A stretch of DNA of 25,022 bases from NCBI GenBank assembly GCA_964360965.1, contig CAYHYM010000007.1:1-25022 (forward strand), in the 5' to 3' direction. The notes below the pieces were generated by a model that ran no database searches, had not been told where the DNA came from, and saw only the letters and a list, made by a program, of their open reading frames with translations. The DNA comes from an uncultured Gammaproteobacteria bacterium (GTDB taxonomy: Bacteria; Patescibacteriota; Microgenomatia; Daviesbacterales; UBA10151). A program made the position numbers and the translations under genes. This document shows positions 6,237 through 25,022 of the stretch, one piece after another; the first letter of the stretch is position 1; every line of letters starts with the position of its first letter.

Positions 6237-6238
6237 CT

Positions 6239-7713: not shown

Positions 7714-7714
7714 G

Positions 7715-8173: not shown

Positions 8174-8448
8174 TAAAATTTTAGTCCTCCTTCTCTGGCG
8201 CCTCTGGCAAGTTCTGCTATTCTACCATGGTATAAAAAATTACCTCTGTCAAAAACTACCTCAGTAATTTTTTTTCTACTTGCTTTTTGGGCTATTTTTT
8301 TACCTACCTCATAAGCCTTTTCTTTGTTTAAACTTTTAGCCACATTTAAATCTGATTCAGATACCAAAATTATACCTTTACTATCATCTATTATTTGAGC
8401 ATATATATGCTTACTGGATTTAAATACAGACAGTCTTAGACGATTCAT
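8173..8448 (-). CDS. rplR: 50S ribosomal protein uL18, N-terminally short
   Basis: 91 aa. RLSVFKSSKHIYAQIIDD ... VFDRGNFLYHGRIAELARGAREGGLKF is uL18. It begins at the point equivalent to roughly residue 25 of typical uL18. The ATG overlaps the rplF stop (ATGA), and the ORF cannot be extended upstream. Confidence 0.92.
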   Translation of the reverse strand: MNRLRLSVFKSSKHIYAQIIDDSKGIILVSESDLNVAKSLNKEKAYEVGKKIAQKASRKKITEVVFDRGNFLYHGRIAELARGAREGGLKF

Positions 8449-9005: not shown

Positions 9006-9010
9006 TTTAT

Positions 9011-9388
9011 TTACCAAACCTCCGCCAGTACCTCTCCCCCAAGGCGAAGTTTGGCAGCCTTTCGATCTGACATAATTCCTTTAGGTGTGGATATTATTCT
9101 TATTCCTAAATTTGAAAAATATTTTGATAAGGCTGTCGCTTTTTTATAAATTCTCGCAGAGGGTTTAGATACTCTTTTCACCCCGGACAATGCCGGAGCA
9201 TGCTGATTATATTTTAATATAACCAATATTTGTCTATCTTTTTTGGTAGCATCCTCTATAAAATTTTCCTGTTTTAGAAGTTTGCATATTCTCATAACAG
9301 AATTTGAATGCTCAAGTGATACTTGAGGCTTTGAAGCCATATAACCGTTTTTAATTCTTATTAGTGCATCAGAAACAAAATCTTGCAT
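9011..9388 (-). CDS. rpsH: 30S ribosomal protein uS8
   Basis: 125 aa. DALIRIKNGYMA and GIRIISTPKGIMSDRKAAKLRLGGEVLAEVW are uS8 motifs. Confidence 0.95.
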   Translation of the reverse strand: MQDFVSDALIRIKNGYMASKPQVSLEHSNSVMRICKLLKQENFIEDATKKDRQILVILKYNQHAPALSGVKRVSKPSARIYKKATALSKYFSNLGIRIISTPKGIMSDRKAAKLRLGGEVLAEVW

Positions 9389-9389
9389 A

Positions 9390-9569
9390 TTACCAACTCG
9401 CTTTCTTGACTCCCGGCAAGAATCCCTGATGCGCTAAGTTTCTAAAACAAAGCCTGCAAAGATCAAACCTGCGTAAATACCCCCTTGACCTGCCACATTT
9501 TAAACATCTATTTCTTATCTGCACCTGATATTTAAATTTCTTTTTAACAATATTTGACACCTTAGCCAT
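9390..9569 (-). CDS. rpsN: 30S ribosomal protein uS14, zinc-binding type Z
   Basis: Hand-translated 59 aa: [59 protein letters not shown]. It has the CxxC...CxxC motif and the KASW C-terminus, and lies between rplE and rpsH. It is below the ORF-track length cut-off. Confidence 0.93.
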
Positions 9570-9572
9570 ATA

Positions 9573-10115
9573 TTACTTCCTAAAAGGCATGCCTAAAAGT
9601 TCCAATAGCATTTTTGCCTGATCATTATTTTGGGCGGTTGTAACAATGGTAATTTCCAAACCCCTGATCTTATCAATTGTTTTATAATCAACCTCTTGAA
9701 AGATAGTCTGTTCCCGAATTCCAATACTTAAATTTCCTCTCCCGTCAAAAGATTTCACAGATATGCCTTTGAAATCTCTTACTTTTGGCAGTGCCATATT
9801 GACCAGTCTATCAAAAAAAGCATACATTCTTTCCCCCCTTAAGGTTAATTTCATGCCAATGGGCTGTCCGGCGCTCACTTTAAAAGAAGATATTGATTTT
9901 TTGGCCAAAGTTACCACAGGCATCTGACCGGCAATAGAGCTTAGGTATTTCTTTACTATTTCCAAAACTGCCTGATTATCTTTTGCCTCACCCAAACCAA
10001 TACTGATAATAATTTTTTCCAGTTTTGGAATTGCCAATTTATTTTTTAAAGCATACTCTTGCTGTATTTTGGGTAGTATCTCTTGCTGATATTTTATTTT
10101 TAACCGATTTATCAT
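9573..10115 (-). CDS. rplE: 50S ribosomal protein uL5
   Basis: Start taken at MINRLKIKYQQEI (ATG at 10115), which forms an ATGA overlap with the rplX stop. GQMPVVTLAKKSISSFKV and FDGRGNLSIGIREQTIFQE are uL5 motifs. Confidence 0.93.
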   Translation of the reverse strand: MINRLKIKYQQEILPKIQQEYALKNKLAIPKLEKIIISIGLGEAKDNQAVLEIVKKYLSSIAGQMPVVTLAKKSISSFKVSAGQPIGMKLTLRGERMYAFFDRLVNMALPKVRDFKGISVKSFDGRGNLSIGIREQTIFQEVDYKTIDKIRGLEITIVTTAQNNDQAKMLLELLGMPFRK

Positions 10116-10423
10116 AACTGATTGATCTCCTTTTTGCATTTTTTACAAATTCTTATCTTACTGGCCCCTTTTAACACAAATCCAACTCTGGTAGGTTTCT
10201 GACAAGTAGGACATATCAACATCACATTGGAAATATTAATTGGCTTTACAATATTAATAATTCCTCCCTCTCTATCTCCCTGTTTTCTCACATGCCTTTT
10301 ATAGGTATTCACAGAAGTTACCATAATTTTCCTTTCCTTACTTAAGACATACTCAATACTCCCTATTTTACCGCGATCCTTACCTAATAATACTTTGACT
10401 TTATCGCCTTTTTTAATCTTCAT
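10112..10423 (-). CDS. rplX: 50S ribosomal protein uL24, Cys4 variant
   Basis: Start taken at MKIKKGDKVKVLLGKDRGK (KOW motif; ATG at 10423, 8 nt after the rplN stop). It contains CPTC...CKKC, a probable zinc-ribbon variant of uL24. Confidence 0.92.
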   Translation of the reverse strand: MKIKKGDKVKVLLGKDRGKIGSIEYVLSKERKIMVTSVNTYKRHVRKQGDREGGIINIVKPINISNVMLICPTCQKPTRVGFVLKGASKIRICKKCKKEINQL

Positions 10424-10431
10424 ACAATTTC

Positions 10432-10800
10432 CTACCACACCTCCTGAGCAAGTGAAATAATCTTGGTAAATCCTTTATCTCTTACTTCGCGGGCTACGGG
10501 TCCAAAAATTCTGGTGGCCCTTAAATTGCCGTCTTGATCAACAATTACTCCTGCATTATCATCAAATTTTATATATGATCCATCATCACGCCTGACTTCT
10601 TTCTTGGTCCTAACTATCACACTTTTGACAATTTCATGATCTTTAACTTGACCATTTGGATCTGCTCCTTTAACAACAGCCACCACAATTTCACCTAAAG
10701 ATGCTTTTCTTTTGCCGGAACCTCCTAAAGGTTGGATTACTTGTAATATCTTTGCCCCGCTATTATCTGCCACTTTTAACATTGATCTATGTTGTACCAT
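10432..10800 (-). CDS. rplN: 50S ribosomal protein uL14
   Basis: 122 aa. [23 protein letters not shown] ... [26 protein letters not shown] is classic uL14. Confidence 0.97.
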
Positions 10801-10801
10801 A

Positions 10802-11218
10802 TTACTTAACCTCTTTCTGTTTTTTAACTTTTATCTTTTTTGTTGTTTTTGTCGGAGTTTCAGCAGCATCAGTTTTTATTTGACCTGCTGATTCACTGAC
10901 ACTCTGACCCACTGACTCTTCCGGCTTCTCTGGCATCACCTCTGCAATGATTTCTTCCGCTGCTACTTTTAGTTTTTCTTTTGCAATTTCTGACAAATTC
11001 TTTCCCACTACTTTGGCGATCCGCCAGTGTTTATTTTTAGAAATAGGAGCAATTTTGATAATTTCCACCAAATCACCATCTTTAACACCGATTGGATCAT
11101 CTACTAAATACTTTTTGCTTCTTTTAAATGTTTTCTTATATATCGGATGCCTGGCAACTCTTTCGATCAAAACCACCGCCGTTTTTTGCATCTTGGTTGA
11201 TGTAACTCTGCCTATCAT
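10802..11218 (-). CDS. rpsQ: 30S ribosomal protein uS17 with a roughly 55-aa C-terminal tail
   Basis: 138 aa. [39 protein letters not shown] is the uS17 core. The tail is [59 protein letters not shown]. Confidence 0.93.
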
Positions 11219-11526
11219 TTTGTTTTGGACAATTCTGTCCTACCTCTCTTTCTTGATGGAGGTTTTTTTGTGGAATTGTCCACTACGACCACTTTCTCGG
11301 AATTTTCAGTTTTTGGAGTTAATTCTTCTAAAAGTTGTTTTTGTCTTACCACTGTTAAAATTTGCGCTAAATCTTTTCTTTTTTTAGAAATCATCTTCAA
11401 ATCTTTTAATTTTTTCATATTTTTTTCCATGGTTAATTCGCCAATTTCACCTTTGAGAGATTTTGCCTTATCTTTCAACTCTTTAACATCTAAATTTTTA
11501 ATTTGTGCAAATTCGTTTTTCTTCAT
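11215..11526 (-). CDS. rpmC: 50S ribosomal protein uL29 with a C-terminal tail
   Basis: 103 aa. The helical uL29 core (LDVKELKDKAKSLKGEIGELTMEK ... KKRKDLAQILTVVRQK) is followed by about 38 extra residues. It lies between rplP and rpsQ. Confidence 0.9.
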   Translation of the reverse strand: MKKNEFAQIKNLDVKELKDKAKSLKGEIGELTMEKNMKKLKDLKMISKKRKDLAQILTVVRQKQLLEELTPKTENSEKVVVVDNSTKKPPSRKRGRTELSKTK

Positions 11527-11530
11527 AATA

Positions 11531-11947
11531 TTAATTTTCTCTTTTTACAAATTTTGTTTGTATAGGCAATTTATGAGAGGCCAGTCTTAAGGCTTCTTGC
11601 GCCATTTGAAAGGGAACTGCACCCACCTCAAAAATCAGCTGTCCAGGTTTAACAACTGCCACATACCCTTCTACATCCCCTTTGCCAGAACCCATCCTCG
11701 ATTCTGCAGGATGGCGAGTTATGGGTTTATCCGGAAATATCCTTATCCAAATACGACCACCTCTTTTTGTATAGTTGGTCATTGATCTTCTGGCCGCCTC
11801 AATCTGACGGGAGGTCAACCACCCTGCTGCCATAGATTTTAATCCATACTGTCCAAAAGAAAGCATACTTCCCCGAGTGGCGATTCCTCTTCTTTTACCT
11901 CTGAAAGCTTTACGATATTTTGTTCTTCTTGGTTGAAGTAATGCCAT
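11531..11947 (-). CDS. rplP: 50S ribosomal protein uL16
   Basis: 138 aa. [21 protein letters not shown] and [19 protein letters not shown] are uL16 motifs. Confidence 0.97.
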
Positions 11948-11948
11948 A

Positions 11949-12587
11949 TTAAATTTCTTCTCCTTTATGTATCCAAACTTTTACTCCCACATAACCTGAT
12001 TTTGTTAAAGCAGGGTATATAGCAAAATCTATATTTGCACGTAATGTATGCAGCGGCAAGCTACCGGAAGTTTTGCTTTCACGTCTGGCAATTTCTGCCC
12101 CGCCAATCCTGCCGGACAAAACTATTCTTACTCCCTTTGCCCCGGCATTTCTTACCCTTTCCACTGCCTGATTCATCACTCTTTGTGCAGGTAATCTTTT
12201 GAGAAGTTGGTCGGCAATACCAAGTGCTACAAGATAAGCCGAAAGATCAGCTGATTTTAACTCTTTTGGAACAATTTCCAATGTATTATCACTTTTGATA
12301 TTTAAGTTTTGCATTAACAATTTCTTTAGTTCTATCAAACCTGTGCCACCCCGGCCAATCAGCACTCCCGGCCTTGCTACACTGATAATGATTTTTAATT
12401 TATTAATTGATCTTTCAATTTCTACGGATGCTACTCCGGCCGGCCTTAACTTTTTCATCAGTAATTCTCTTATTTTTATATCTTCTATAACCAACTGGCG
12501 ATATTTGTTTTTATTGGCAAACCATCTAGATTGCCAATCCACCCCTACCCCAATTCTAAAACCAATTGGATGAATTTTTTGACCCAT
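11949..12587 (-). CDS. rpsC: 30S ribosomal protein uS3
   Basis: Start taken at ATG 12587 ([13 protein letters not shown]), which has a TGATG overlap with the rplV stop. The ORF-track start at 12590 is a GTG one codon upstream. KH domain and [10 protein letters not shown] motif are present. Confidence 0.96.
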
Positions 12588-12925
12588 CACTTACTCCCTT
12601 CATCACTCAAAACTATTTTTATATGGCTAATTCTTTTTTTATATGGACTCACTCTTCCTCTGGGAGCGGGTCGCATTCTTTTAAGCCTCGGTCCTTCATT
12701 AACTTCTATTTTTTTAAAAAAAACTTGATCCTGATCCAAACCTTTTTGTCTAGTATTGGCCAGGGCCACTTTTACAGCCTTGGCTAAATGAAGCCCGGCA
12801 ACCTGAGGTGTAAACTTGAGTATTTCCAGGGCTTTTGCTGGTGTCATTTTGCGAATTAAACCTGCCACCAACCGTAGTTTCCTAGGACTTATGTGTATAT
12901 ATTTTTGATTTGTTATAACTTCCAT
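12587..12925 (-). CDS. rplV: 50S ribosomal protein uL22
   Basis: Start taken at MEVITNQKYIHISPRKLRLVAGLIR (ATG at 12925), one nt after the rpsS stop. The long ORF-track N-extension overlaps rpsS and was rejected. Confidence 0.93.
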   Translation of the reverse strand: MEVITNQKYIHISPRKLRLVAGLIRKMTPAKALEILKFTPQVAGLHLAKAVKVALANTRQKGLDQDQVFFKKIEVNEGPRLKRMRPAPRGRVSPYKKRISHIKIVLSDEGSK

Positions 12926-12926
12926 A

Positions 12927-13229
12927 TTAGGTTTTCTCCAATACCCTTTTGGCAATTGTTCCATGGGATCTAAAAATTCTTGTTGGCGCAAACTCTCCCA
13001 ATTTATGTCCCACCATACTCTCTGAAACAAAAACATTTACAAAGTTTTTCCCTTGATGAACCAAAAATGTATGACCCACAAACTCTGGTGGGATTTGTGA
13101 TCTTCTGGCCCAAGTTTTAATTGGAGTCTTCGTGCCGGAGGCACCCCCTATTCCACCCTCTTTTTGCTTGAGAACTTTTTTCATTAATTTCTCGTCAATA
13201 TACGGTCCTTTTTTACTAGATCTGGACAT
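12927..13229 (-). CDS. rpsS: 30S ribosomal protein uS19
   Basis: Start at ATG 13229 ([12 protein letters not shown]), with a TGATG overlap on the rplB stop. [12 protein letters not shown] is the uS19 signature. There is a small Gly-rich insertion ([11 protein letters not shown]). Confidence 0.95.
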
Positions 13230-13963
13230 CACTTTCTCCTTTTCAAAATATATTTATTCGTCCACTTAGTCTTTTTCCTGGTTTTGCCAACTGCCGGTTT
13301 TCCATAAACCGTCATTGGTTTTTTACGACCAACGCCGGATCGACCCTCTCCTCCACCGTGTGGATGAGAGTCAGGATCCATAGCCACTCCTCTTACCTGT
13401 GGTCTAATCCCCATGTGCCGCGATCTTCCTGCTTTGCCAATTACTCTTTGTTTCATATTTTCATTACCTAAACTGCCAATTGTAGCCATTGCCTCCAAAG
13501 GCACCATTCTTGCCTCACCTGATGGCATCTTCAGATGCGCAAACCCCGCTTCTTTGGCCAGCAGTTGGATGGCAACTCCTGCTGATCTTGCCAACTGTCC
13601 GCCTCTGCCGGGTATAAGTTCAACGTTGTGTAAAAGCGTACCCACGGTAATATTTTTAAGTTTCATGGCATTGCCGGATTTTACTTCCATCTTATCCCCG
13701 GCAGACACTTTATCTCCAATTTTTATCCCCTTTGGCGAAAGAATATAGCGATATTCCCCATCAGGATATTTAATTAAAGCAACATCCACATTTCTATTTG
13801 GATCATATTCTAAACCAATAACCTCACCCTCCACCCCAAATTTATCTCTTTTGAAATCTATCTCACGATAGTATCTTTTATGCCGACCTCCTTGACCGCG
13901 TACCGTCACCCTGCCATGAGACCTGCCGGAATGTTTTTTTAATATAGTTTTTAAATTTTTCAT
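13229..13963 (-). CDS. rplB: 50S ribosomal protein uL2, N-terminally short
   Basis: 244 aa. [23 protein letters not shown] ... [15 protein letters not shown] is uL2. About 30 residues normally found before the GR.T.R..GGGHK motif are absent. Only 9 nt separate it from rplW. Confidence 0.95.
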
Positions 13964-13972
13964 GTATCCTCC

Positions 13973-14398
13973 CTACGTTGGAATCACCTTTCTTTGTGTT
14001 GTAGGTGCAGCTCCTGTAGCCCCTCTCTCAACTCTCACATTAGTTCTTCTAAAAATATCTTTCCTTTCCTTAATTACCTGCGGTTCACCCTCCGGGGTGG
14101 TTACCAAAGCTTCATCTTTTGGCGTTTCAAAAATGGCAATTTTCTGCCCATTTTTAACCTTGACTATGGCTTTTTTAAATCCGGGGATTTCATAAGATTT
14201 CCTCGCTCTTTTTTGCATTTTTTTCTTTGGTTTGATATTTATGATTTTAACCTGAACTATATCTACTCCAAATTTATTTTTAACAGAATGAGCAATTTGT
14301 TTTTTATTAGCTTTATTGTCAACTAAAAAAATGTACTCTCCTAAAGAGGCTAATCTTGTTGATTTTTCCGTAATAATAGGTTTTATCAAAATTATCAT
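13973..14398 (-). CDS. rplW: 50S ribosomal protein uL23 with a roughly 50-aa C-terminal tail
   Basis: 141 aa. The core is IKPIITEKSTRLASLGEYIFLVDNKANKKQIAHSVKNKFGVDIVQVKIIN ... KKAIVKVKNGQKI. The extra tail is TPKDEALVTTPEGEPQVIKERKDIFRRTNVRVERGATGAAPTTQRKVIPT. Confidence 0.9.
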   Translation of the reverse strand: MIILIKPIITEKSTRLASLGEYIFLVDNKANKKQIAHSVKNKFGVDIVQVKIINIKPKKKMQKRARKSYEIPGFKKAIVKVKNGQKIAIFETPKDEALVTTPEGEPQVIKERKDIFRRTNVRVERGATGAAPTTQRKVIPT

Positions 14399-15054
14399 TT
14401 TAAATTCTCCAGCGCGTCCTTGGTAACAAGTAACTTTTGATGCCGTAAAATTTCATAGGTATTAATTAAATTAATAGGCAAAATATCCACTCCAGGGATA
14501 TTCCTGACAGCTCTTAAGGCATTATCTTGTTTTTTACCTGTAACAATCAGAGCATTTTTAATATTTAATTTTGCGAGTAAATTTGCCATTTGTTTTGTTT
14601 TACCGGTTGATTTTTCCAGTCCGGAAATTGCCAAAATGTCTTTTTCTACAAACTTACTGGATAAAGCATTAATTAGTGCTTTTCTTTTCATCTTTTTGGG
14701 TAAGGCAAGCCTTACTTTTCTTGGTCTTGGCCCGAAAACCACTCCTCCTCCCACAAAAATTGGGGCAGTCCTAGCTCCATGTCTGGCCCTACCTGTTCCT
14801 TTTTGTTTCCATATCTTGGCAGTTGAACCCCTTACTTCACCTCTGGTTTTGGTTGAGGCTGTAAAAGTTTTTAGGTTTGTCATATACACCCTAATTGCTT
14901 GAGCAAGCAACTTTTCATTCACCTTTGCTCCAAATACTTCTTTTGGTAAGACATAAGTTCCGGAAGCTCTACCTGCTAGAGAATACACTGGCACTGACAA
15001 GCTTCCTCTTTTAGGCTTGTCATCCTGAGTGGTAACTTTTTTAACTCTGGGCAT
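14395..15054 (-). CDS. rplD: 50S ribosomal protein uL4
   Basis: 219 aa. KTRGEVRGSTAKIWKQKGTGRARHGARTAPIFVGGGVVFGPRPR is the uL4 signature. It has an ATGA overlap with rplW. Confidence 0.96.
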   Translation of the reverse strand: MPRVKKVTTQDDKPKRGSLSVPVYSLAGRASGTYVLPKEVFGAKVNEKLLAQAIRVYMTNLKTFTASTKTRGEVRGSTAKIWKQKGTGRARHGARTAPIFVGGGVVFGPRPRKVRLALPKKMKRKALINALSSKFVEKDILAISGLEKSTGKTKQMANLLAKLNIKNALIVTGKKQDNALRAVRNIPGVDILPINLINTYEILRHQKLLVTKDALENLK

Positions 15055-15835
15055 CTTTTATTTCCTCCTTTTGTGGTTCTGTCTTTTCCACCTTCTGTTC
15101 TCCAGAGTCTTCACTTGATTCTTGATTCTTGTCGCTTGCTTCTTCCTCTTCCTCTATCTTTTCCTCTGGCGGAGGAGTGTAACCTTTAATTCTTCCTAAG
15201 TTTGCCACCATAACCAAACCATTTGTTGAACCAGGTACAGCACCTTTAATAGTTAACAGATTCTTTTCTTTATCCACACCAACCACCTCTAGTCCCTTAG
15301 TGGAAACCTTAACATTTCCCATATGCCCTGCCATTTTCTTACCTTTGTAAACTCTGCCCGGAGTTGTGCCTGAACCAATGGAACCGGGTGCGCGATGTCT
15401 ATCTGATTGGCCGTGAGTTTTTGGTCCTCCATGAAAGCCGTGACGTCTGACACCACCTTGAAACCCCTTTCCTTTGGAAGTACCTGTCACTTTAACCACA
15501 TCTCCAATAGAAAAAACCCGATCAACTGTGATTTGCTGACCAGGTTTCAAATCTCCCCAATCTCCCTGATTTCCCTTATCATCCCTAATCTCCCTAAAGT
15601 GGCGGATCGGTTGCTCTACCCCTGCTTTTTTACCATGTCCAATTTGAGGTTTTTTCACTGACTTCTTACTACCATACCCAATTTGTATCCCGTTATATCC
15701 ATCTTTTCCCTCAGCAGTTTTTAATTGTGTTACAAAATTTGGACCAATTTCTACCATAGTTGCCCCCACCCTTCTTCCCCTAGAGTCGTAAGTGCTAATC
15801 ATTTGTTTTTTTATACCCAATAACGTGTTAATCAT
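15041..15835 (-). CDS. rplC: 50S ribosomal protein uL3 with an acidic C-terminal tail
   Basis: Start taken at ATG 15835 (MINTLLGIKKQMISTYD); the ORF-track start at 15847 is a TTG inside the upstream U-tract. FQGGVRRHGFHGGPKTHGQSDRHRAPGSIG is uL3. The last roughly 44 aa are PPPEEKIEEEEEASDKNQESSEDSGEQKVEKTEPQKEEIKDAQS. Confidence 0.94.
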   Translation of the reverse strand: MINTLLGIKKQMISTYDSRGRRVGATMVEIGPNFVTQLKTAEGKDGYNGIQIGYGSKKSVKKPQIGHGKKAGVEQPIRHFREIRDDKGNQGDWGDLKPGQQITVDRVFSIGDVVKVTGTSKGKGFQGGVRRHGFHGGPKTHGQSDRHRAPGSIGSGTTPGRVYKGKKMAGHMGNVKVSTKGLEVVGVDKEKNLLTIKGAVPGSTNGLVMVANLGRIKGYTPPPEEKIEEEEEASDKNQESSEDSGEQKVEKTEPQKEEIKDAQS

Positions 15836-15845
15836 AAAAATCCAC

Positions 15846-15886
15846 AAAAAAGAGTGAGCCCTTCGACTTTGCTCAGGGTCTCACTC
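15846..15886 (-). terminator. Intrinsic-terminator-like hairpin plus U-tract 10 nt upstream of the rplC start (candidate attenuator)
   Basis: Minus strand reads GAGTGAG-A-CCC TGAGCAAAGTCGAA GGG CTCACTC TTTTTT GTGGATTTTT ATG. The stem is 10 bp with one bulged A, the loop is 14 nt, and six T follow. Confidence 0.5.
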
Positions 15887-15963
15887 AGTAAATGTGCTTA
15901 CACAAATTACTGAAATTTATTTATTTTTATATTTAATTTTTACCATCTGCATGGTATGGGAAA

Positions 15964-15992
15964 ATTGTAACAGAGGCTGAAGCTAATTGCAA
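15964..15992 (-). promoter_or_regulatory. Sigma70-type promoter between rpsJ and rplC
   Basis: Minus strand reads TTGCAA (15992-15987), a 17-nt spacer, then TGT-TACAAT (-10 at 15969-15964, extended TG). It lies 23 nt after the rpsJ stop and about 120 nt upstream of the rplC ATG. Confidence 0.5.
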
Positions 15993-16014
15993 GGAACCGT
16001 GAAACTGTTATAAT
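15987..16014 (+). promoter_or_regulatory. Possible oppositely oriented promoter sharing the palindromic -35 (would drive antisense to rpsJ)
   Basis: Plus strand reads TTGCAA (15987-15992), a 16-nt spacer, then TGT-TATAAT (-10 at 16009-16014). TTGCAA is its own reverse complement and is the same hexamer used by the minus-strand promoter. Confidence 0.25.
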
Positions 16015-16015
16015 A

Positions 16016-16324
16016 TCATATCTTAACTTCAATATCAACTCCTGCAGGGAGTTCCAGATGCGTTAGGGAATCAATTGTTTTTTGGGTTGGTTCTATGATA
16101 TCCAACATTCTTTTGTGAGTTTTTATTTCAAAAGCTTCTCTTGCGTCTTTATCTGTATGTGGAGAAGTCAAAACTGTAATTCTCTCTGTTTTGGTGGGGA
16201 GGGGAATAGGACCAATTACCTTGGCTCCGGTTCTTAAAGCTGTTTCCAGTAAAGACTCACAGGTTTGATCCAAAACCTTATGATCATAACTTTTGAGTCT
16301 AACACGAATTCTACCTTTCGGCAT
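16016..16324 (-). CDS. rpsJ: 30S ribosomal protein uS10
   Basis: 102 aa. [15 protein letters not shown] ... [27 protein letters not shown] is uS10. SD AAGGGG lies upstream. Confidence 0.97.
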
Positions 16325-16362
16325 AAATTATATTTCCCCTTTCAATGTGCTAATTATACTGC

Positions 16363-17547
16363 TTAGGCAATTATTTTGGTAATAACTCCTGCTCCAACGG
16401 TTTTTCCACCTTCACGGATAGCAAATCTCAAACCCTCTTCCATGGCAACAGGGGTAATCAGTTTTCCGGTAATTTTAACAGTATCACCCGGCATGGCCAT
16501 TTCTACACCTTCCGGCAATTGTACTTCACCAGTCACATCTGTAGTTCGAATATAAAACTGCGGTCTGTAGCCTTTGAAAAATGGTGTGTGCCTTCCGCCT
16601 TCTTCTTTGGATAAAACATAAACCTCTGCTTCAAATTCTGCATGTGGGGTAATTGATCCGGGTTTTGCTAAAACTTGACCTCTTTCCACATCATCTTTTT
16701 CAATTCCACGAAGAAGAACCCCTGCATTATCTCCTGCCTGACCCTCATCCAAAAGTTTATGGAACATCTCAATTCCCGTAACCACACTTTTTTTGGTAGG
16801 CCTTATTCCCACAATCTCCACCTCTTCATTTACTTTAACTTTGCCTCTTTCAATTCTGCCTGTGACCACAGTTCCCCTACCTTTAATGGAGAAAACATCC
16901 TCAACTGCCATCAAAAATGGCTTATCCACATCCCGAACAGGAGTGGGAATCCACTCATCAACTTTGGCCATCAGCTCTTCAATTGATTTGACAGCTTCCG
17001 CATCACCATCCAAAGCTTTCTTGGCTGATCCTCGAATAATTGGGGACTGGGGGTCATATTCATATTTTTTAAGTAAATCCCGAATTTCCTCTTCCACCAA
17101 ATCCAAAAGCTCAGGATCATCCACCATATCTACTTTATTAAGATAAACCACAATAGCAGGAACGCCTACCTGACGAGCCAACAGCAAATGTTCACGAGTC
17201 TGCGGCATTGGGCCGTCTGGCGCGGAAACTACCAAAATTGCCCCATCGGTTTGAGCAGCGCCGGTGATCATATTTTTGATATAATCCGCGTGACCGGGCA
17301 TGTCTATGTGAGCGTAGTGTCTTTTTTCTGTCTCATATTCCTGGTGGGAAATGTTAATGGTGATACCGCGGGCTTTTTCCTCAGGGGCGTTGTCAATCTG
17401 ATCTACAGTACGGACCTCGGCCATGCCTTTCGCAGCTAAAACTTTGGTGATTGCTGCAGTTAAGGTAGTTTTACCATGGTCAACATGACCCATGGTACCG
17501 ATATTGACGTGTGGTTTGCTTCTGTCAAACTTTTTCTGTTCAGCCAT
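16363..17547 (-). CDS. tuf: Elongation factor Tu
   Basis: Start taken at [29 protein letters not shown] (ATG at 17547, with AAAGGAG 2 nt upstream). G1-G4 motifs are present ([20 protein letters not shown]). The 23-codon ORF-track extension lies in a GC-rich hairpin and was rejected. Confidence 0.96.
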
Positions 17548-17560
17548 AACTCCTTTGTCA

Positions 17561-17611
17561 TTCCCGCGAAGGTCATCGACTCCGAGGTCGCTCAGACTCG
17601 AGGAGCGGGAA
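17561..17611 (-). repeat. GC-rich palindromic element in the tuf 5' leader
   Basis: Minus strand reads TTCCCGC-(37 nt: TCCTCGAGTCTGAGCGACCTCGGAGTCGATGACCTTC)-GCGGGAA. The closing stem is 7 bp, and the element is markedly GC-rich against AT-rich surroundings. It ends 4 nt before the tuf SD. Confidence 0.45.
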
Positions 17612-17623
17612 TCCATTTAAAAT

Positions 17624-17640
17624 CCAGCTTACTTAGCTGG
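17624..17640 (-). promoter_or_regulatory. Short hairpin CCAGCT-AAGTA-AGCTGG followed by ATTTT (weak terminator or 5' leader stem)
   Basis: Perfect 6-bp stem with a 5-nt loop. It lies downstream of the candidate tuf promoter and upstream of the GC-rich element. Confidence 0.35.
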
Positions 17641-17650
17641 AACATATGAA

Positions 17651-17679
17651 AATATACAATAATTTCCCTGATAATGCAA
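17651..17679 (-). promoter_or_regulatory. Sigma70-type promoter for tuf-rpsJ
   Basis: Minus strand reads TTGCAT (17679-17674), a 17-nt spacer, then TATATT (17656-17651). It lies about 100 nt upstream of the tuf ATG and 24 nt after the stop of the 42-aa peptide gene. Confidence 0.4.
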
Positions 17680-17703
17680 TAGTTAAATTATAAAATGGAT
17701 CAA

Positions 17704-17832
17704 TTAAGAATTTTTTGAACGTTTACTGGGAGAATCTTTTTTACCAAAAGCAATATAAACCAAAGCAAAGGCTATAATAAGCAGTAGATACATCACACCT
17801 ATATTATTAGTAATTTCTCTAAAATCCATCAT
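17704..17832 (-). CDS. 42-aa single-TM mini protein (P3), paralog of P1
   Basis: Hand translation: MMDFREITNNIGVMYLLLIIAFALVYIAFGKKDSPSKRSKNS. AAGGAG lies 3 nt (first ATG) or 6 nt (second ATG) upstream. There is an ATGA overlap with the stop of the 65-aa ORF. 17 of 28 residues are identical to P1 across the TM segment. It is below the ORF-track cut-off. Confidence 0.6.
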   Translation of the reverse strand: MMDFREITNNIGVMYLLLIIAFALVYIAFGKKDSPSKRSKNS

Positions 17833-18026
17833 TTTCTCCTTGATTTTTCCCTCAAATACTTTGCTGCAAACAAAGCTAGTATACCATTTAGAATCTTAAA
17901 TAACAATAAAAAGATGTCCTCCTGACTCCGAAGAGAATAGAACTGAGTCTCAACAAGTGCAGCTATAAACCAAGCTGCGCCGAAGTTGACCAGAAATTCA
18001 GATATAATTTCATACCAAATTCGCAT
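17829..18026 (-). CDS. 65-aa two-TM mini membrane protein with a basic C-terminus
   Basis: MRIWYEIISEFLVNFGAAWFIAALVETQFYSLRSQEDIFLLLFKILNGILALFAAKYLREKSRRK has two hydrophobic helices and ends KSRRK. Its ATG shares one nt with the P1 stop (TAATG). The N-terminal half weakly resembles P1/P3, with E-I, V, I, L-V and F at matching positions. Confidence 0.55.
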   Translation of the reverse strand: MRIWYEIISEFLVNFGAAWFIAALVETQFYSLRSQEDIFLLLFKILNGILALFAAKYLREKSRRK

Positions 18027-18136
18027 TAGGAACGATTTTTAAAGAAAATTATATATACTAGAGGAAAAATTATTAAAACTATTAGATATTCAACAGCGAT
18101 GGCATTAGTAATCTCAGTAAAACTTCTTCCATTCAT
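18026..18136 (-). CDS. 36-aa single-TM mini protein (P1), paralog of P3
   Basis: Hand translation: MNGRSFTEITNAIAVEYLIVLIIFPLVYIIFFKNRS. No SD is visible; a TATACT box ends 6 nt upstream of the ATG, so a leaderless start is possible. DNA-level similarity to P3 is also visible (GARATTACTAAT ... TATCTA ... GTNTATAT). Confidence 0.5.
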   Translation of the reverse strand: MNGRSFTEITNAIAVEYLIVLIIFPLVYIIFFKNRS

Positions 18137-18163
18137 AAGGGTAGTATATCAGATGACAAAATG

Positions 18164-18183
18164 TTCTCGACCGAGAATATAAT
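18164..18183 (+). promoter_or_regulatory. Palindrome TTCTCG-AC-CGAGAA abutting a TATAAT box (candidate operator and -10 for ORF180)
   Basis: 6+6 perfect inverted repeat at 18164-18177 (8 of 10 matches per arm when extended to 18161-18180). TATAAT follows at 18178-18183, and ATGACA lies at 18153-18158 with a 19-nt spacer. It sits in the 111-nt divergent region between P1 and ORF180. Confidence 0.35.
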
Positions 18184-18247
18184 GAATACTGCACCCTAAA
18201 AGCTATGATAGGTGGAAAGCTAAACTAGGTTGTGGTATACATAAACC

Positions 18248-18790
18248 ATGGATTCAGAAGAAACAACTAGTCCAGAACTAGAAACAATGCGTGCTCAAGT
18301 ATGGCAGGAAGTTGAAGACAACTGGCAAAAAGAAGTTAAAAGAAATCCAAAATTAGCAGCAGATGATCCAAAAGTTGTTTATGAAGGAATAGACGAAGCA
18401 GAGATTAATCCAGAATTAAGAGCTAATTATGAGGCTGGGTTTAAGGCTAGAAAAATTGCTAATTTCCTTTATAATTTTCGATCAGATATGCCTAGTAAGT
18501 ATAATCATTTTGTAGAAGTTCTAGGACCAGACTATGTCTACACTGATACTCATACTTCTTATTCTTCTCTTCAATATGGAAAAACAATTGAGCAATATTA
18601 TGGTGAAATTGCAGAGGCTATGAAACAAGCTGGAATCTCTGTAGAAGATTGGCAAAGAATTGAAGAAGAAAGGGATAAAAAAACCTACGGTTTGACTGAA
18701 CTTAAATTTCAAGAAACCTTATTAGATATTTATACTAGACTTAGGCTGATAAATCCTAATGCCCCTAAATTTGATCAGGAACCCATCTAA
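18248..18790 (+). CDS. Acidic 180-aa hypothetical protein (ORF180); no family recognised
   Basis: ORF-track protein MDSEETTSPELETMRAQVWQEVEDNWQKEV.... The plus strand here is purine-rich, matching the coding-strand bias of the other genes in the window. No SD is visible, and no TM segment or motif is recognised. The last 69 nt overlap the 3' end of ORF115 on the other strand. Confidence 0.55.
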   Translation: MDSEETTSPELETMRAQVWQEVEDNWQKEVKRNPKLAADDPKVVYEGIDEAEINPELRANYEAGFKARKIANFLYNFRSDMPSKYNHFVEVLGPDYVYTDTHTSYSSLQYGKTIEQYYGEIAEAMKQAGISVEDWQRIEEERDKKTYGLTELKFQETLLDIYTRLRLINPNAPKFDQEPI

Positions 18791-19069
18791 CTTTACTACT
18801 AGCACCTGCCCCCAATACCAATCACTTAATTCCATTCCATGTCTAAGATTAGTCATGGCTTTATGGATACAGTGGTCATCTCCATAGAAGGTAAACACGA
18901 CAAATCTATTTGGATCTACAATCCTTACGCATCTCCCTTTGATTTCTCCTGTTTCGAGTTTCACCCTTGAGAGCTCAACATGAGCACCAAGTTCAAGAGG
19001 ACTCTTATCCTTATGGCCAATTTCTAAAGGACCAACTTTCCATCTTGGTTCTAATTCATAGAAACCCAT
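18722..19069 (-). CDS. 115-aa hypothetical protein (ORF115), start-stop coupled to fusA
   Basis: Start taken at ATG 19069 (MGFYELEPRWKVGPLEIGHKDK...), one nt after the fusA TAA (TAAcATG). The ORF-track start at 19111 lies inside fusA. The plus strand is pyrimidine-rich, consistent with minus-strand coding. No family is recognised. Confidence 0.55.
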   Translation of the reverse strand: MGFYELEPRWKVGPLEIGHKDKSPLELGAHVELSRVKLETGEIKGRCVRIVDPNRFVVFTFYGDDHCIHKAMTNLRHGMELSDWYWGQVLVVKLDGFLIKFRGIRIYQPKSSINI

Positions 19070-19070
19070 G

Positions 19071-21182
19071 TTAGTGTTCCACTCTTCCTGTAAATCCTGA
19101 GGATTCAACAATTTTGGCAGTTATATTTTGGGGTACAGGTTCATAGTGATCTGCTTCCATGTAGTAAGAAGCTCGTCCTTGTGACATACTGCGCAAAGTG
19201 GTGGCATATCCATGCATCTCTGCCAGAGGTACCAGGGAATTAATAATAGTATAATTTCCTCTTTTTTCCGTTCCCAGGATTTGAGCCCGTTTTTTTGATA
19301 AATCACCAATAATATCTCCCATAAACTCATCAGGCGTTGTCACCTCCACCTTCATAATAGGCTCAAGTAAAATCAATCCTGCTCTTTTGGCCGCATCGGA
19401 AAGGCCCAATGATCCGGCAATTTTAAAGGCAATCTCAGATGAGTCAACCTCATGATAAGAACCATCATAAACAGTCACTTGAATATCAGTCAAAGGATAT
19501 CCTGCCAAAATACCCGTATCTTCTTTCTCAATCACTCCTTTCTCAATAGCCGGAATATACTCTCTTGGTATTGCTCCTCCCACCACTTCTGAGACAAACT
19601 CACGACCCTGACCCCTTGGCAATGACTCTATCTTGATCAAACAATGCCCATATTGCCCTCTGCCCCCAGTTTGCCTAATATATTTTCCTTCACCTTGAGC
19701 ATTTACGGTAATTGTTTCTTTATAGGCAACTTGCGGCTGTCCAACATTGGCCTCAACCTTAAATTCCCTTTTCATCCTCTCCACTAAAAGCTCCAGCTGG
19801 AACTCCCCCATGCCGGCAATAATAGTCTGTCCTGTTTCAGGATCGGATTTTACTCTAAAAGTAGGGTCTTCCTCAGCCAGTCTTCCCAGAGCATAACCCA
19901 ACCTCTCCTGATCGCTTTTGGTTTTTGGCTCAATAGCCAAAGATATGACCGGATCCGGAAATAAGATAGATTCCAAAATAATTGGATAGCTTTCATCACA
20001 TAATGTATTCCCGGTGATGGTGTCTTTGAGCCCCACAGCTGCCACAATTTCACCTGAGAAGGCTTCATCTATTTCTTCCCTGTCATTGGCATACATCAGT
20101 AAGATTCTACCCACTCTTTCTTTGATCTGTTTTGAGCAGTTATAAACATAAGATCCGCTCTTTAGGGTTCCCGAATAAACCCTGATATAGGTCAGTTTCC
20201 CCACATGTGGATCAACCTGGATTTTAAAAACCAGGGCAGAAAGAGGGGCTTGAGGGTCTGCTTTTCTTTGCTCTGACTCTTGCGTTTGCGGATTTTGGCC
20301 GGAGACTTCTGCAATATCTTGGGGAGAAGGCAAAAAATCTACCACAGCATCCAACACTTTCTGAACTCCCTTATTTCGCAAAGATGATCCTGAGAGAACC
20401 GGCACAATTTTACTTTCAATTACAGCCTTTCTTAAAACTCTTTTTAACTCATCTACAGCAATCTCCTGTACCGCCAAATATTTTTCCATCAGTACATCAT
20501 CGCATCCAGCAATTTCCTCTACCAGTTTTTCCCTAGCTTCTTTTACTTCCCGGGCCATATCAGAGGGAATCTCAACCTCACTAAATTCTGCACCGGTGGA
20601 ATCACTTTCCCAAATAAAAGCTTTTTGGGTCAGTAAATCAACAACTCCCTTGAATTCATTTTCCCGTCCTATGGGAATATTATATGCAACTGCATTTGCG
20701 CCCAACTTTTCCCTAGCAGATTTTATTGTTCCCATAAAATCTGCTCCCACCACATCCATTTTATTGGCAAAGGCAATCAGGGGAACCCTGTATTTATTGG
20801 CCTGCCTCCAGACAGTTTCAGTCTGGGATTGCACTCCTGAGGCTGCATCCAAAACTATCACTGCCCCATCCAAAACTCTCAGAGACCGCTCCACCTCTGC
20901 TGTAAAATCAACATGGCCGGGAGTATCAATTAAATTAATCCTGACATCTTTCCAAAAAGTGGTGATGGCAGCAGACATAATAGTCACACCATGCTCTTTT
21001 TCCAGCTCCATCCAGTCAGTCACAGTGGTTCCCTCATCAATATTGCCGATTTTATAAGTTCTGCCTGTGTAAAAAAGGATTCGCTCAGTGGTGGTAGTTT
21101 TACCGGCATCAATATGGGCAATAATGCCAATATTTCTAATTTTATCAAGAGGAAAATCCCTTTTGGTTTTTTGAACAGCCAT
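19071..21182 (-). CDS. fusA: Elongation factor G
   Basis: 703 aa. [47 protein letters not shown] and NKMD match EF-G, and all five EF-G domains are recognisable by length and motifs. Confidence 0.97.
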
Positions 21183-21183
21183 A

Positions 21184-21408
21184 TTATATATCCTTTTCCA
21201 GCTCTCTGATCATTTTTTGCATCTGAGCCAGTCTGACCGAAATCATCTCTTGCTGCTCAGTAAACATTTTATAATCAGCATTTTCGGACAAATCTCCTTC
21301 TTGAGCGGCAGTGCCTCTTTTTACCATCACCTCAACCAGCTGCTTTTGCAGCTCCTGTTCCTGTTTTTTCCACATATTCAGTTTCTTTTTTTTAAAATTT
21401 TTATTCAT
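21184..21408 (-). CDS. GreA/GreB N-terminal coiled-coil domain protein, with no C-terminal domain
   Basis: Start taken at ATG 21408 with GGAG 5 nt upstream. [74 protein letters not shown], 74 aa. GDLSENADY...EQQ matches the Gre coiled-coil tip (E. coli GreA GDLKENAEYHAAREQQ). The stop lies one nt before the fusA ATG. Confidence 0.6.
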
Positions 21409-21420
21409 CTCAACTCCAAA

Positions 21421-21450
21421 ATAAAAAAGCCCCCTCAAACACAGGAGGCT
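21421..21450 (-). terminator. Intrinsic-terminator-like hairpin plus U-tract between rpsG and the Gre-like ORF
   Basis: Minus strand reads AGCCTCCT GTGTTTG AGGGGGCT TTTTTATTTT. The stem is 8 bp (one G-U pair, 5 G-C pairs) with a 7-nt loop and a T-rich tail, followed by the SD GGAG and the ATG at 21408. Confidence 0.55.
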
Positions 21451-21458
21451 ATATCAAT

Positions 21459-21486
21459 ATTATACCTTCTTAAACCTAAAAGTCAA
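21459..21486 (-). promoter_or_regulatory. Near-consensus sigma70-type promoter immediately after the rpsG stop
   Basis: Minus strand reads TTGACT (21486-21481), a 16-nt spacer, then TATAAT (21464-21459). The predicted start lies only a few nt upstream of the terminator-like hairpin. Confidence 0.45.
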
Positions 21487-21489
21487 ATT

Positions 21490-21963
21490 TCACCATCTAA
21501 AATGGGCAAACGCCCTATTGGATTGAGCCATTTTCTGCACATCTTCCTTTTTCTTTACAGCTCCACCTGTATTTGCAGCTGCGTCTAAAAGTTCTTGAGC
21601 CAATTTTAAATCAAAGCTATGATACGCTGAATTAGACCTTGATATTGCCGCCATAATAATCCATCTAATAGCCAACGCCTCACGCCTATCACCTCTCACC
21701 TCAACCGGCACCAGATATGAAGCCCCTCCCACCCGTCTAGGTCTGACCTCCATTTTAGGAACCACATTTTGGATGGCTTGTTCAAAAATTTGCAGTGGGT
21801 CTTGTTTTTGCTGTTTGATTTGATCAAGAGCCCGATAAACTAACTTTTGGGCCAAAGTTTTTTTACCGTCTCTCATCACCCGATTGATCAATCGGTTAAG
21901 CAATATTGAGTTGTAAATAGAGTCAGGGCTTAAAATTCTTTTTGAAGCTTTCTTGCTTCTCAT
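21490..21963 (-). CDS. rpsG: 30S ribosomal protein uS7
   Basis: 157 aa. [22 protein letters not shown] and [21 protein letters not shown] are uS7 motifs. It has an ATGA overlap with the rpsL stop. Confidence 0.96.
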
Positions 21964-22442
21964 GATACAGCCGTCTCCCCTCCGACCGGTGCTGCTGGCG
22001 GTACAGCCTGAACTACGGGCCGTACAGGTACCATACCACTTCTCTTTGTACCATATTTACTGCGCCCTTTTTTCCGTCCGGATACTCCCTCCATATCCAG
22101 TTTCCCGCGGATGATGTGATATTTTACTCCCGGCAGATCTTTGACTCTGCCACCCCTCACAAGAACAATTCCATGCTCTGCTAAATTGTGACCAATGCCG
22201 GGAATATAAGCTGTAACTTCAGTTCTATTTGACAACCTTACCCTAGCCACTTTTCGAAGAGCCGAGTTTGGTTTTTTAGGCGTCATAGTTTTAACTAAAG
22301 TGACAACACCCCGCTTTTGAGGGTTAAAAAATTGGCTGAAACGTCGATCTTTGGCATTAAAATTACGCCGCAAGGCCCCTGCCTTGACTTTTTTGACAAC
22401 CTTTTTTCTACCTTTTCTTAAAAGTTGATTAACTGTAGGCAT
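21960..22442 (-). CDS. rpsL: 30S ribosomal protein uS12 with a Pro/Ala/Val-rich C-terminal tail
   Basis: 160 aa. [31 protein letters not shown] and [19 protein letters not shown] are uS12 motifs. About 24 extra C-terminal residues follow ([24 protein letters not shown]), encoded by a locally GC-rich stretch. Confidence 0.95.
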
Positions 22443-22443
22443 T

Positions 22444-25022
22444 TTAACTTTCTAGTTTAGCCCTTTCAGGACTTGTTGGTATTAAACGTCCAATTATAAC
22501 ATTTTCTTTAAGTCCAATTAACTTATCCACCTTCCCTTGCATCGCAGCATCTGATAACACTGATGTTGTTTCTTGAAATGAGGCAGCAGAAAGGAAACTC
22601 TCAGTTTGAAGTGAAGCCCTGGTGATGCCCAAAATTACTATCTCTGCTGTTGACGGTTCTCCTCCGCCTGCCAAAACCCTTTCGTTTTCTTCCTCAAATC
22701 TTAATTTATCAACTGTCTCCCCAGGCAGTAAATTAGTATCTCCGGCTGATTCAATCCTGACCTTATCCGACATTTTTTTAACAATCACTTCAAAATGCTT
22801 CTCATGAATTGATACCCCCTGTGACACATAAATATTTCTTACCTCATCTATAATATAGCATTGTGACATTCGAAGTCCTTTAACTCTTAAAAGCTCCTTA
22901 ACATCCAAATGGCCGGAGGCCAGTATTTGACCGGCCTGAATCAACTGTCCATCCTCCACCAGTAAAGAAGCAGAGATTGGCACTAAATATTCACGTTCCT
23001 CGTGAGGTTTTTGGGTTGTTCTGACCTTAATTTTTATTCCTGCATCTGCTGTTTCCTCAATAGTCACCTTGCCTGCAATCTCTGATAGGGGAGCAGTAAT
23101 TTTTGGTGTTCGCGCCTCAAACAGCTCTTCTACTCTGGGAAGACCTTGGGTAATATCAACACCGACAATTCCTCCAGTATGGAACGTGCGCATTGTTAAT
23201 TGTGTTCCCGGCTCACCTATTGCCTGCGCCGCCACAACACCTACCGGAATACCGATTTCAACCGGTTGCCTGGTGGTTAAATCAAAACCATAACAAAAAG
23301 AACAAACACCATATTTTGCCTGACAAGTTAGCGGGCTTCGCACCAAAATTTTCTCCACCCCTCCCTTCATTATCTGTTCAATTTGTTCTTCCCTCAGATA
23401 ATCACCTTCTTTTGCTATCACGTTTTTGGTCTTTTGGTCTATTATTTTCTCTAAAGTCCTTCTACCCAAAAATCTGTTTACCATTGTTTGGAACTTTTCA
23501 TGGCTTACTTCCAGAGTAATTCCCTCAGGAGTTTTACAATCTTCGCTTCTGATGATCACATCATGAACCACATCCACCAAACGCCTTGTTAAATACCCCG
23601 CGTCTGCTGTTTTTAAAGCCTTGTCAGCCACGCCCTTTCTGGCACCCCTGGCTGAGGTAAAATACTCAAACACAGAAAGACCTTGTCTGTAATTTGATTT
23701 GGTAGGAAGTTCAACAATCTTACCTGTAGGATCAACTGAAAAACCTCTCATACCTGAAAGTTGTTTAATCTGTTCAGAAGAAGCTCTGGCACTACCTGAA
23801 TCAGCAATGATTTTCACCGGATTGTCACTCTCCAGCAGTTGCCAAGTCAATTTGTAAATTTCTTCTGTAATTTTAATCCACACTTCTTGAGTTAGCATTC
23901 TCTTTTCATCCTCAGTAATTAAACCTCTCTTCAAATTATTTTCAATCCCTGAAACTTCTTTATCGGCTGCGGCGATTAATTTATCTTTTTCTTCCGCAAT
24001 CTTATTGTCGAAAATGCCTACGGAAATGCCGGAAATGGTTGCGCCCCAAAAACCCAAATCTTTAATATCATCAATTAGTGATATTACAATCTGGCGATCA
24101 AATTTATTAAAAGCATCCATGGTAATTTTTTTTATAAAGGCAGCGTTGACATTCTCATTAATAAATCTTAGCTTAAGCGGTAAAATATTGTTAAAGATTA
24201 GCCTCCCTGCCGAAGATATAATAATTTGGTTGTCCATTTTTATTTTTATCCTCTGCCTTAATTTCAATTTGTTATTATAGAAAGCAAGCAATGCTTCTTC
24301 TGGCAAGAAGATTTTCTCTTGAGGATCTATACTTTCATCAATTGAGGTAATATAGTATATCCCCAGCGCCATCTCTCTGTTGGGAAGTGTCACAGGTGAA
24401 CCGTCCGCAGGTTTTAGGATATTTTCCTGAGCCATCATCAATTTTTTAGCTTCTTCCTGAGCCTTTTGGGACAGTGGCACATGAACCGCCATTTGGTCAC
24501 CGTCAAAATCAGCATTAAAACCTGCGCAAATACAAGGATGTATGGCAATGACATTGCTATCCACCAGAACCGGATAAAAGGCTTGTATACCCAGTCTATG
24601 CAGTGTGGGGGCACGGTTAATAAGAATCGGGTGATTTTCTATAATCTCCTCTAAAATATCCCAAACTTCTGCTGATCTATGATCCAGCACATTTTTAGCT
24701 CCTTTAACATTTGAAGACAAACCTCTGGCAATAATCTCTCTTAGTACAAAAGGCTTAAACATCTCCAGCGCCATCTCCTTGGGTAAACCCACCTGATTAA
24801 GGCGAAGTTTAGGTCCAACCACAATCACAGATCTTCCTGAATAATCAACTCTTTTGCCCAAAAGATTTTGTCTAAATCTGCCCTGCTTACCTCCTAGCAT
24901 ATCCGATAAGGAGCGGAGATTGCGTGCTGCTGCCCTTCTGGTGGTGGGTTTTGAAGATGTATCTATTAAACTATCTACTGCCTCCTGCAACATCCTCTTT
25001 TCATTTCTTAAAATTATTTCCG
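22444..25022 (-). CDS. rpoC: DNA-directed RNA polymerase beta' subunit, C-terminal roughly 859 codons; the 5' end lies beyond the right edge
   Basis: The frame is open to the window edge. It contains the catalytic [16 protein letters not shown], the bridge helix ([25 protein letters not shown]) and the trigger-loop region ([17 protein letters not shown]). The stop lies one nt before the rpsL ATG. Confidence 0.97.

Follow-up and report, generated by a model that had tools for sequence, protein, structure and literature searches.

What is a gene for the coiled coil of a Gre factor, and for nothing else, doing directly ahead of the gene for elongation factor G? The window, i.e. the whole stretch of 25,022 nucleotides that was analysed, carries on its minus strand the gene order rpoC (22444-24993), rpsL (21960-22442), rpsG (21490-21963), greN and fusA (19071-21182), where greN is our name for a 74-aa ORF at 21184-21408 and mini-Gre that for its product. 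An earlier note on this DNA had these greN coordinates right, and the strand is minus. As read from the sequence, greN opens with ATG at 21408-21406 and closes with TAA at 21186-21184, and a single T at 21183 lies between this stop and the fusA ATG (21182-21180). The fusA ORF encodes a 703-aa EF-G, whose Pfam domains were found on an identical contig, and its nearest relatives are from Candidatus Daviesbacteria (75%) and Curtissbacteria (68%). The rpsG ORF encodes ribosomal protein S7, which is the upstream neighbour of greN in the window and not a conserved one across the relatives. Sequence-identical contigs are present in Hainich groundwater 0.1-um-filter metagenomes.

The 74-aa start is the best supported of the possible starts, because in the members of the family the median number of residues ahead of an invariant lysine (Lys9 in mini-Gre) is 8. 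A Shine-Dalgarno-like GGAG, read directly from the sequence at 21414-21417 on the minus strand, lies 5 nt before this ATG, and AAGGA, which resembles a Shine-Dalgarno sequence for fusA, sits within the 3' end of greN. Two other starts were rejected: a TTG at 21438 (84 aa) falls inside the leader hairpin described below and disagrees with the N-termini of the family, and the second ATG, adopted in the ENA gene call (P0001, 63 aa), would cost conserved residues. A programmed frameshift joining greN to EF-G was also considered and rejected, since the spacing between the two genes is variable, ranging from -20 to +127 nt.

The product of greN matches the Pfam model GreA_GreB_N (PF03449) with 39.3 bits (E 7.6e-10) over profile positions 9-69 of 71, well above the gathering cut-off of 24.5 bits, and the Pfam search of the same 74 residues gave no match to the Gre C-domain, PF01272. 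The NCBIfam models of full-length GreA/GreB match only the N part of the protein and score far under their cut-offs, as in TIGR01462 with 38.5 against a cut-off of 139. AlphaFold2, with the family alignment as input, predicts a hairpin composed of a helix at residues 3-35, a tip loop at 36-43 and a second helix at 44-73 with a mean pLDDT of 94, where the tip loop contains G38, D39, L40, S41, E42 and N43. The best three matches of this model in the PDB by Foldseek are GreA (1grj), GreA (9a7t_B) and GreB (2p4v_A). The rmsd over 60 columns is 1.1 A for 9a7t_B and 1.3 A for 2p4v_A, implying a coiled coil of canonical length, and the Foldseek E-values are weak, as is expected of a plain helical hairpin. 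When the family profile was aligned to E. coli GreA (1GRJ), residues 29-66 were covered and GDLrENaaY fell over GDLKENAEY, so that Asp39 and Glu42 of mini-Gre are the counterparts of Asp41 and Glu44 of GreA. Mini-Gre ends about where the N-domain of GreA ends and the C-domain would begin. The proposal in the earlier note of a stand-alone Gre N-terminal coiled coil that keeps the acidic D and E of the tip, lacks the C-domain and stops one nucleotide short of the fusA ATG is thus borne out by the profile search, the predicted fold and the nucleotide sequence.

Mini-Gre shares with GreA and GreB (PF03449 plus PF01272) a homologous N-terminal antiparallel coiled coil of equal length and the catalytic tip GDLxENAxY with both acidic residues. 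It differs from them in the loss of the entire C-terminal globular PF01272 domain, their means of docking on the beta' rim helices, in Lys9 and Trp13, two family-specific invariants located at the hairpin's open end, and in the fixed position of its gene upstream of fusA with a leader of its own. The other factors that reach into the secondary channel with a coiled coil, Gfh1, Rv3788, DksA and Rnk, of which some have an acidic tip (PMC4598747), each possess a globular RNAP-binding domain, and none of them is a bare hairpin; the two-domain Gre fold of the Gfh1/Rv3788 type, in which binding is governed by how the C-domain is oriented, is not that of mini-Gre, in which the C-domain is absent. DksA is further set apart by its zinc finger and different tip (DxxDxA), and Rnk by its short coiled coil. 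Accordingly, the DksA/TraR Pfam models gave no match to the greN product at E <= 1, the tip is of the Gre type, and DksA2 appears among the Foldseek PDB matches only weakly, at rank 16 with E 1.8. The N-terminal arm of HelD is, according to PMC7749165, a Gre-like coiled coil that occupies the secondary channel and is not accompanied by a Gre C-domain; that arm is, however, anchored by a large helicase-like body, whereas mini-Gre has no further domain.

This architecture is not peculiar to one contig. A HMMER search of 1.84 billion cluster representatives at 50% identity yielded 15 matches under E 1e-5, all of 48-126 aa and all consisting of the N-domain only, and two-domain GreA appeared in the same search with weaker E-values only. 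The profile search of the 90%-identity clusters yielded 915 matches, the best 120 of which are all 72-126 aa long; PF03449 is the only Pfam domain in 115 of these 120, five have no Pfam match on record, and PF01272 occurs in none. The family comprises at least 113 sequence clusters with the N-domain only, and the lengths in the 113-member alignment run from 72 to 95 aa with a median of 79. The tip GDL[RS]ENAA[YF] is present in all 113 sequences, in which K9, W13, A34, G38, D39, L40, E42 and N43 are invariant and many more positions on both helices, exposed charged ones included, are conserved in more than 90%. The family was seen only in Daviesbacteria-like Microgenomates (CPR/Patescibacteria), which are ultra-small bacteria of groundwater, and its members are deposited as "hypothetical protein [Candidatus Daviesbacteria bacterium]", "GreA/GreB family factor" or "GreA/GreB N-terminal domain-containing protein".

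To assess selection, dN/dS was taken from the closest greN pairs with unsaturated synonymous sites, as these sites are saturated in most pairs, and it amounts to 0.04-0.18; the family means are 0.38 for pN and 0.79 for pS. A longer or full-length gre gene was not found at the position of greN in any relative examined. We therefore conclude that greN is a real gene, and probably an expressed one, of a conserved family under purifying selection. The earlier note had allowed for a decayed remnant, and this option is refuted by the selection, the uniform length, the invariant tip and the absence of a full-length gene at the site. The other two options of the note, a weak or competitive ligand of the channel and a partner of another anchoring protein, both retain some probability.

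A few deviating copies were observed beside the main family. In a contig of Candidatus Curtissbacteria (MFAZ01000043.1), a divergent short gene (L006:5716-5973) precedes fusA by 6 nt; with SGAAWNENAAW at its tip it has lost the first acidic residue, Trp13 is absent, and it is not preceded by the TTGACTTT promoter and hairpin leader. Judged from its sequence, this copy may be degenerating or re-purposed. Tandem or nearby duplicates of mini-Gre occur at L085:366-804, L091:417-855 and L111:171-1503. The second copies score much lower and have altered tips, namely GDWNENAEF in L085 and L091 and GYLSEN, with the Asp replaced, in L111.

The closest full-length relatives found are two-domain GreA proteins of 149 aa from other Microgenomates, named Candidatus Shapirobacteria or Patescibacteria group (P0155-P0274; L116:513-959 and L117:1598-2044). 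They resemble mini-Gre in the tip region, RGEAAxEGDLxENSAY(IF), and in a similarly short helix 1. Unlike mini-Gre, they contain PF01272, lack Trp13 and are encoded in unrelated gene contexts, and unlike greN their genes have no TTGACTTT promoter and hairpin leader. Among the few proteins with organism names, the short form belongs to Daviesbacteria and the full-length form to Shapirobacteria, and no contig is common to carriers of greN and carriers of the 149-aa GreA among the best 120 of 1414 GreA matches. Since the 149-aa proteins have the closest tip region among the full-length forms found, a protein of this kind that lost its C-domain is a likely origin of mini-Gre.

The position next to fusA is conserved as well. 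We gathered 30 distinct greN loci, 29 of which include downstream sequence; in 28 of these 29, the gene that follows on the same strand is fusA. The sole locus without a visible fusA (L111) is on a 2.3-kb contig. The distance from the greN stop to the fusA start, which depends on heuristic choices of start codons, is -20 to +13 nt in 18 of the 28 loci, with 1 nt in the window and, in several further loci, -1 or 0, and in two loci something intervenes, an opposite-strand ORF (L094) and a 1.1-kb gap (L098). The upstream side is much less constant. The distance from the S7 gene to greN is 29-145 nt in six loci and 0.6-3.6 kb in others, with unrelated genes inserted, and S7 is replaced altogether by a histidine kinase gene in one locus (L089) and by a divergent mannose-phosphate isomerase gene in another (L001). 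In CPR relatives outside the greN clade (Parcubacteria and others, some at 62-66% EF-G identity), rpsG is followed directly by fusA without any greN-like ORF. As the upstream side varies and the junction with fusA is kept, the conserved unit is greN-fusA rather than an insert between rpsG and fusA. The earlier note had described an insertion between rpsG and fusA near rpoC, which is correct as to the position in the window but does not hold as the conserved framing, because fusA alone is the constant partner and the pair brings its own promoter and hairpin leader.

Several other features of the window were recorded along with this locus. Between fusA and tuf (17704-19111), the str operon is broken up by ORFs that gave no Pfam match where checked: on the minus strand, one of 129 aa (18722-19111), whose overlap with the 3' end of fusA is 41 nt, and three small hydrophobic ones of 36, 65 and 42 aa (17704-18136), and on the opposite strand one of 180 aa (18248-18790). 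The relatives carry different cargo in the same interval, such as Band_7 proteins and uncharacterised ones, and the fusA-tuf gap therefore looks like a hot spot for insertions in the greN clade. Ribosomal protein S12 (21960-22442, minus) has 160 aa with a Pfam match at residues 40-132 only; it is extended at the N-terminus and has a C-terminal tail rich in Pro, Val and Ala. The S12 of one relative (L086) has 144 aa. The EF-Tu ORF (16363-17616, minus) amounts to 417 aa from its first ATG, about 23 residues above the typical length, and its true start is probably an internal position, the gene calls in relatives giving 392 aa. rpoC is one continuous ORF of 849 aa in the window (22444-24993), while its 3' part is split into two gene calls of 487 and 141 aa on an otherwise identical ENA contig (L003:1-1907), a discrepancy between the two records that may lie in the assembly or in a frameshift. 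The remainder of the window consists of the S10-spc-alpha ribosomal protein cluster and a methionine aminopeptidase-type M24 gene (4916-5692), and a tRNA gene lies at 231-301 on the minus strand (Rfam RF00005, 54.3 bits).

The greN-fusA pair has its own predicted transcription signals. A sigma-70-type promoter-like site, TTGACT-16 nt-TATAAT (21486-21459, minus strand; 11/12), follows directly after the rpsG stop and is the top match of the promoter scan in 5100-25022. The stricter pattern TTGACTTT-N14-16-TANNAT has a single match in the window, at this very site, with 0.04 expected by chance, and across 121 loci (1.27 Mb) 31 of its 41 plus-strand matches fall in greN loci. About 8 nt past the -10 hexamer begins a terminator-like hairpin, AGCCUCC-UGUGUUU-GAGGGGGCU (21450-21428, minus), found by the terminator scan and followed by a U-run (21427-21418), so that the leader element as a whole extends over 21418-21450; its predicted fold has -13.3 kcal/mol with z = -3.1. 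The promoter, the terminator-like leader and the Shine-Dalgarno sequence that the earlier note had assigned to greN are therefore all found in place.

The same arrangement of promoter, 5' hairpin and U-run is found at the same place upstream of greN in 25 related loci. There the promoter consists of TTGACT (usually TTGACTTT), a spacer of 17 nt (16-18) and TAnnAT, the hairpin has 7-11 bp and is rich in G+C, and the U-run lies 7-59 nt ahead of the ATG. The hairpin starts 7-15 nt after the -10 element in 22 of the 25 loci (full range 1-38 nt), and at this short distance it would coincide with, or lie close to, the 5' end predicted for the transcript. Conservation of the stem was judged from folds of single sequences against shuffled controls and from visible compensatory stems, MAFFT having aligned the 3' arm only, as the loops vary in length. 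All 20 leaders that were folded singly gave a single hairpin, with z mostly between -2 and -4.8 relative to dinucleotide shuffles, and the stems vary in a compensatory manner (GCCUCC/GGAGGC, ACCCCC/GGGGGU, CCUCGCCUC/GAGGCGGGG and AACCUCU/AGAGGUU). Since the leader is present also where the upstream gene is divergent (L001), it is not merely the terminator of the upstream operon. The Rfam search of the greN leader gave no significant match at the gathering or at a permissive threshold.

The anatomy of a promoter, a terminator-like hairpin and a U-run before a gre start recalls the leader of E. coli greA, whose terminator (GraL) stops two-thirds of the transcripts and has a part in the autoregulation of GreA (PMC2836576, PMC6829880). 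In the 25 loci, the likeness is one of anatomy alone: both are promoter-proximal hairpins resembling intrinsic terminators in the leader of a gre gene, but there is no sequence relationship, and the greN hairpin is CCUCC/GGAGG-rich, lies where the transcript is predicted to begin and precedes a greN-fusA pair. By analogy with the E. coli greA leader, the simplest reading is that the 5' hairpin and U-run would constitute a promoter-proximal attenuator or feedback point, and an attenuator that is sensitive to Gre and sets the output of fusA as well is plausible. Instead of acting as an attenuator, the hairpin could stabilise the 5' end of the mRNA or sequester the Shine-Dalgarno sequence. The GGAGG of its 3' arm is the only candidate Shine-Dalgarno sequence in about seven loci, where the stem ends 7-12 nt from the ATG; it is for this reason that we suppose the hairpin could also gate translation.

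What mini-Gre does has to be considered against the division of labour in known Gre factors. As summarised in PMC3132773, which cites Koulich 1997 and 1998, cleavage and anti-arrest activity reside in the N-domain, and binding to the beta' coiled coil is the task of the C-domain (see also PMC4598747). In M. tuberculosis Gre, one mutation in the C-domain abolished both binding and activity (PMC3132773), and according to PMC4598747 every bacterial secondary-channel factor combines a coiled coil with a globular domain for RNAP binding. The E. coli GreA N-domain fragment of Koulich et al. (cited in PMC3132773) corresponds to the same part of the protein as mini-Gre; the fragment is, however, a laboratory construct, whereas mini-Gre is naturally encoded and selected across a clade. 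Our literature searches found no paper on GreA in CPR/Patescibacteria and nothing relevant on natural Gre proteins with the N-domain only.

We consider it probable that mini-Gre is an anchor-less ligand of the RNAP secondary channel that is made in step with EF-G, and that it most likely stimulates cleavage. The unchanged tip, the canonical length of the coiled coil and the conservation along the entire hairpin favour the RNAP active site or its channel as the target. Mini-Gre would enter the secondary channel as the Gre N-domain does and place the invariant Asp39 and Glu42 at the active site, where they would stimulate the cutting of backtracked RNA or, at the least, modulate catalysis. Without a C-domain docked on the beta' rim helices, the binding would presumably be weak or transient. 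The isolated N-domain fragment of E. coli GreA is said to have shown, in 1998, weak activity and poor binding. It is possible that mini-Gre makes up for weak binding by dosage: EF-G is among the most abundant bacterial proteins, and greN, which precedes fusA in their two-cistron unit, has a near-consensus promoter and an arrangement usually suited to translational coupling, through which the hairpin could reach sufficient abundance. The conserved base of the hairpin, with K9, M12, W13, K16 and L17 facing I66, I67 and L70, may stabilise the hairpin or provide a substitute contact.

Some points weigh against an anchor-less factor of this kind. In canonical Gre factors binding depends on the C-domain, and an acidic tip is no guarantee of cleavage activity, as Gfh1 and Rv3788 show (PMC4598747). 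The invariant partner, fusA, is a gene of a translation factor and not of RNAP. In addition, the comparison of beta' between relatives with and without greN revealed no clade-specific indel that would offer a new docking site.

A bolder version of the same proposal is that these reduced genomes have no Gre factor besides mini-Gre and that the bare hairpin is enough for cleavage and proofreading in vivo. Its obligatory co-translation with EF-G would then make a stoichiometric link between transcription rescue and translation elongation, with the 5' hairpin and U-tract as a Gre-sensitive attenuator that sets the output of EF-G. We put this version forward tentatively, as a possibility that we would not yet favour.

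The alternative that survives best, although we regard it as unlikely, is a regulatory or competitive channel ligand without cleavage activity, which would exist beside a normal two-domain GreA and tune RNAP to the output of the translation apparatus in the manner of Gfh1, Rv3788 or DksA. Such factors are known, as Gfh1 and Rv3788 keep an acidic tip and yet are inhibitory, competing for the channel (PMC4598747). The 149-aa GreA of Shapirobacteria, which are also Microgenomates, provides a canonical factor with a very similar tip within the lineage, and the altered tips of the tandem second copies, as in GDWNENAEF and GYLSEN, would also suit a role other than catalysis. On the other hand, the family preserves the exact catalytic Gre tip in 113 of 113 sequences, and all known inhibitors retain the C-domain that mini-Gre has lost.

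It seems improbable that the hairpin has been recruited to translation, where it would bind EF-G or the ribosome and might, for instance, modulate or chaperone EF-G or tie RNAP physically to the ribosome. Such a role would agree with the greN-fusA junction being kept in 28 of 29 loci while the upstream side changes, with the frequent overlap of the stop and start codons, with a median net charge of -3 in the family and with exposed residues that are conserved on both helices. However, a complete Gre tip kept over deep divergence is hard to explain unless the RNAP active site is the target, co-expression accounts for the tight linkage to fusA equally well, and no precedent was found in the literature.

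We give still less weight to a split Gre factor, in which a separate C-domain-like or other RNAP-bound protein would supply the anchor in trans. The conserved base of the hairpin described above is a possible protein-protein interface that such a partner could use, but within 8 kb on either side of greN no locus contains a PF01272-type ORF or a conserved partner other than fusA, and no Gre C-domain was detected among the uncharacterised ORFs of the window, which have no Pfam match. Finally, greN is very short, abuts fusA and contains the fusA Shine-Dalgarno sequence, as a truncated pseudogene, a chance ORF or a leader peptide that loads ribosomes onto fusA might, yet the uniform length and invariant motif in at least 113 clusters, a dN/dS far below 1, the confident fold and the absence of a longer gene at this site in any relative make such an origin extremely improbable.

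With the anchor-less channel ligand as the preferred reading, part of the picture is familiar, since the Gre N-domain itself is already known and members of the family are in the databases under generic labels. What is new is a conserved and selected Gre family devoid of the C-domain, its fixed coupling to fusA, and a promoter and hairpin leader dedicated to the pair. A naturally selected coiled coil without a globular domain offers a test of whether the anchor is essential or merely raises the affinity, and mini-Gre, a small, soluble protein, would define the smallest unit that can reach the active site of RNAP. The greN family may thus show that the domain by which these factors usually anchor themselves to the polymerase is dispensable. 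Moreover, the fixed pairing with fusA and the conserved leader of its own point to an unnoticed regulatory link between the supply of EF-G and the rescue of RNAP in the genome-reduced CPR bacteria.
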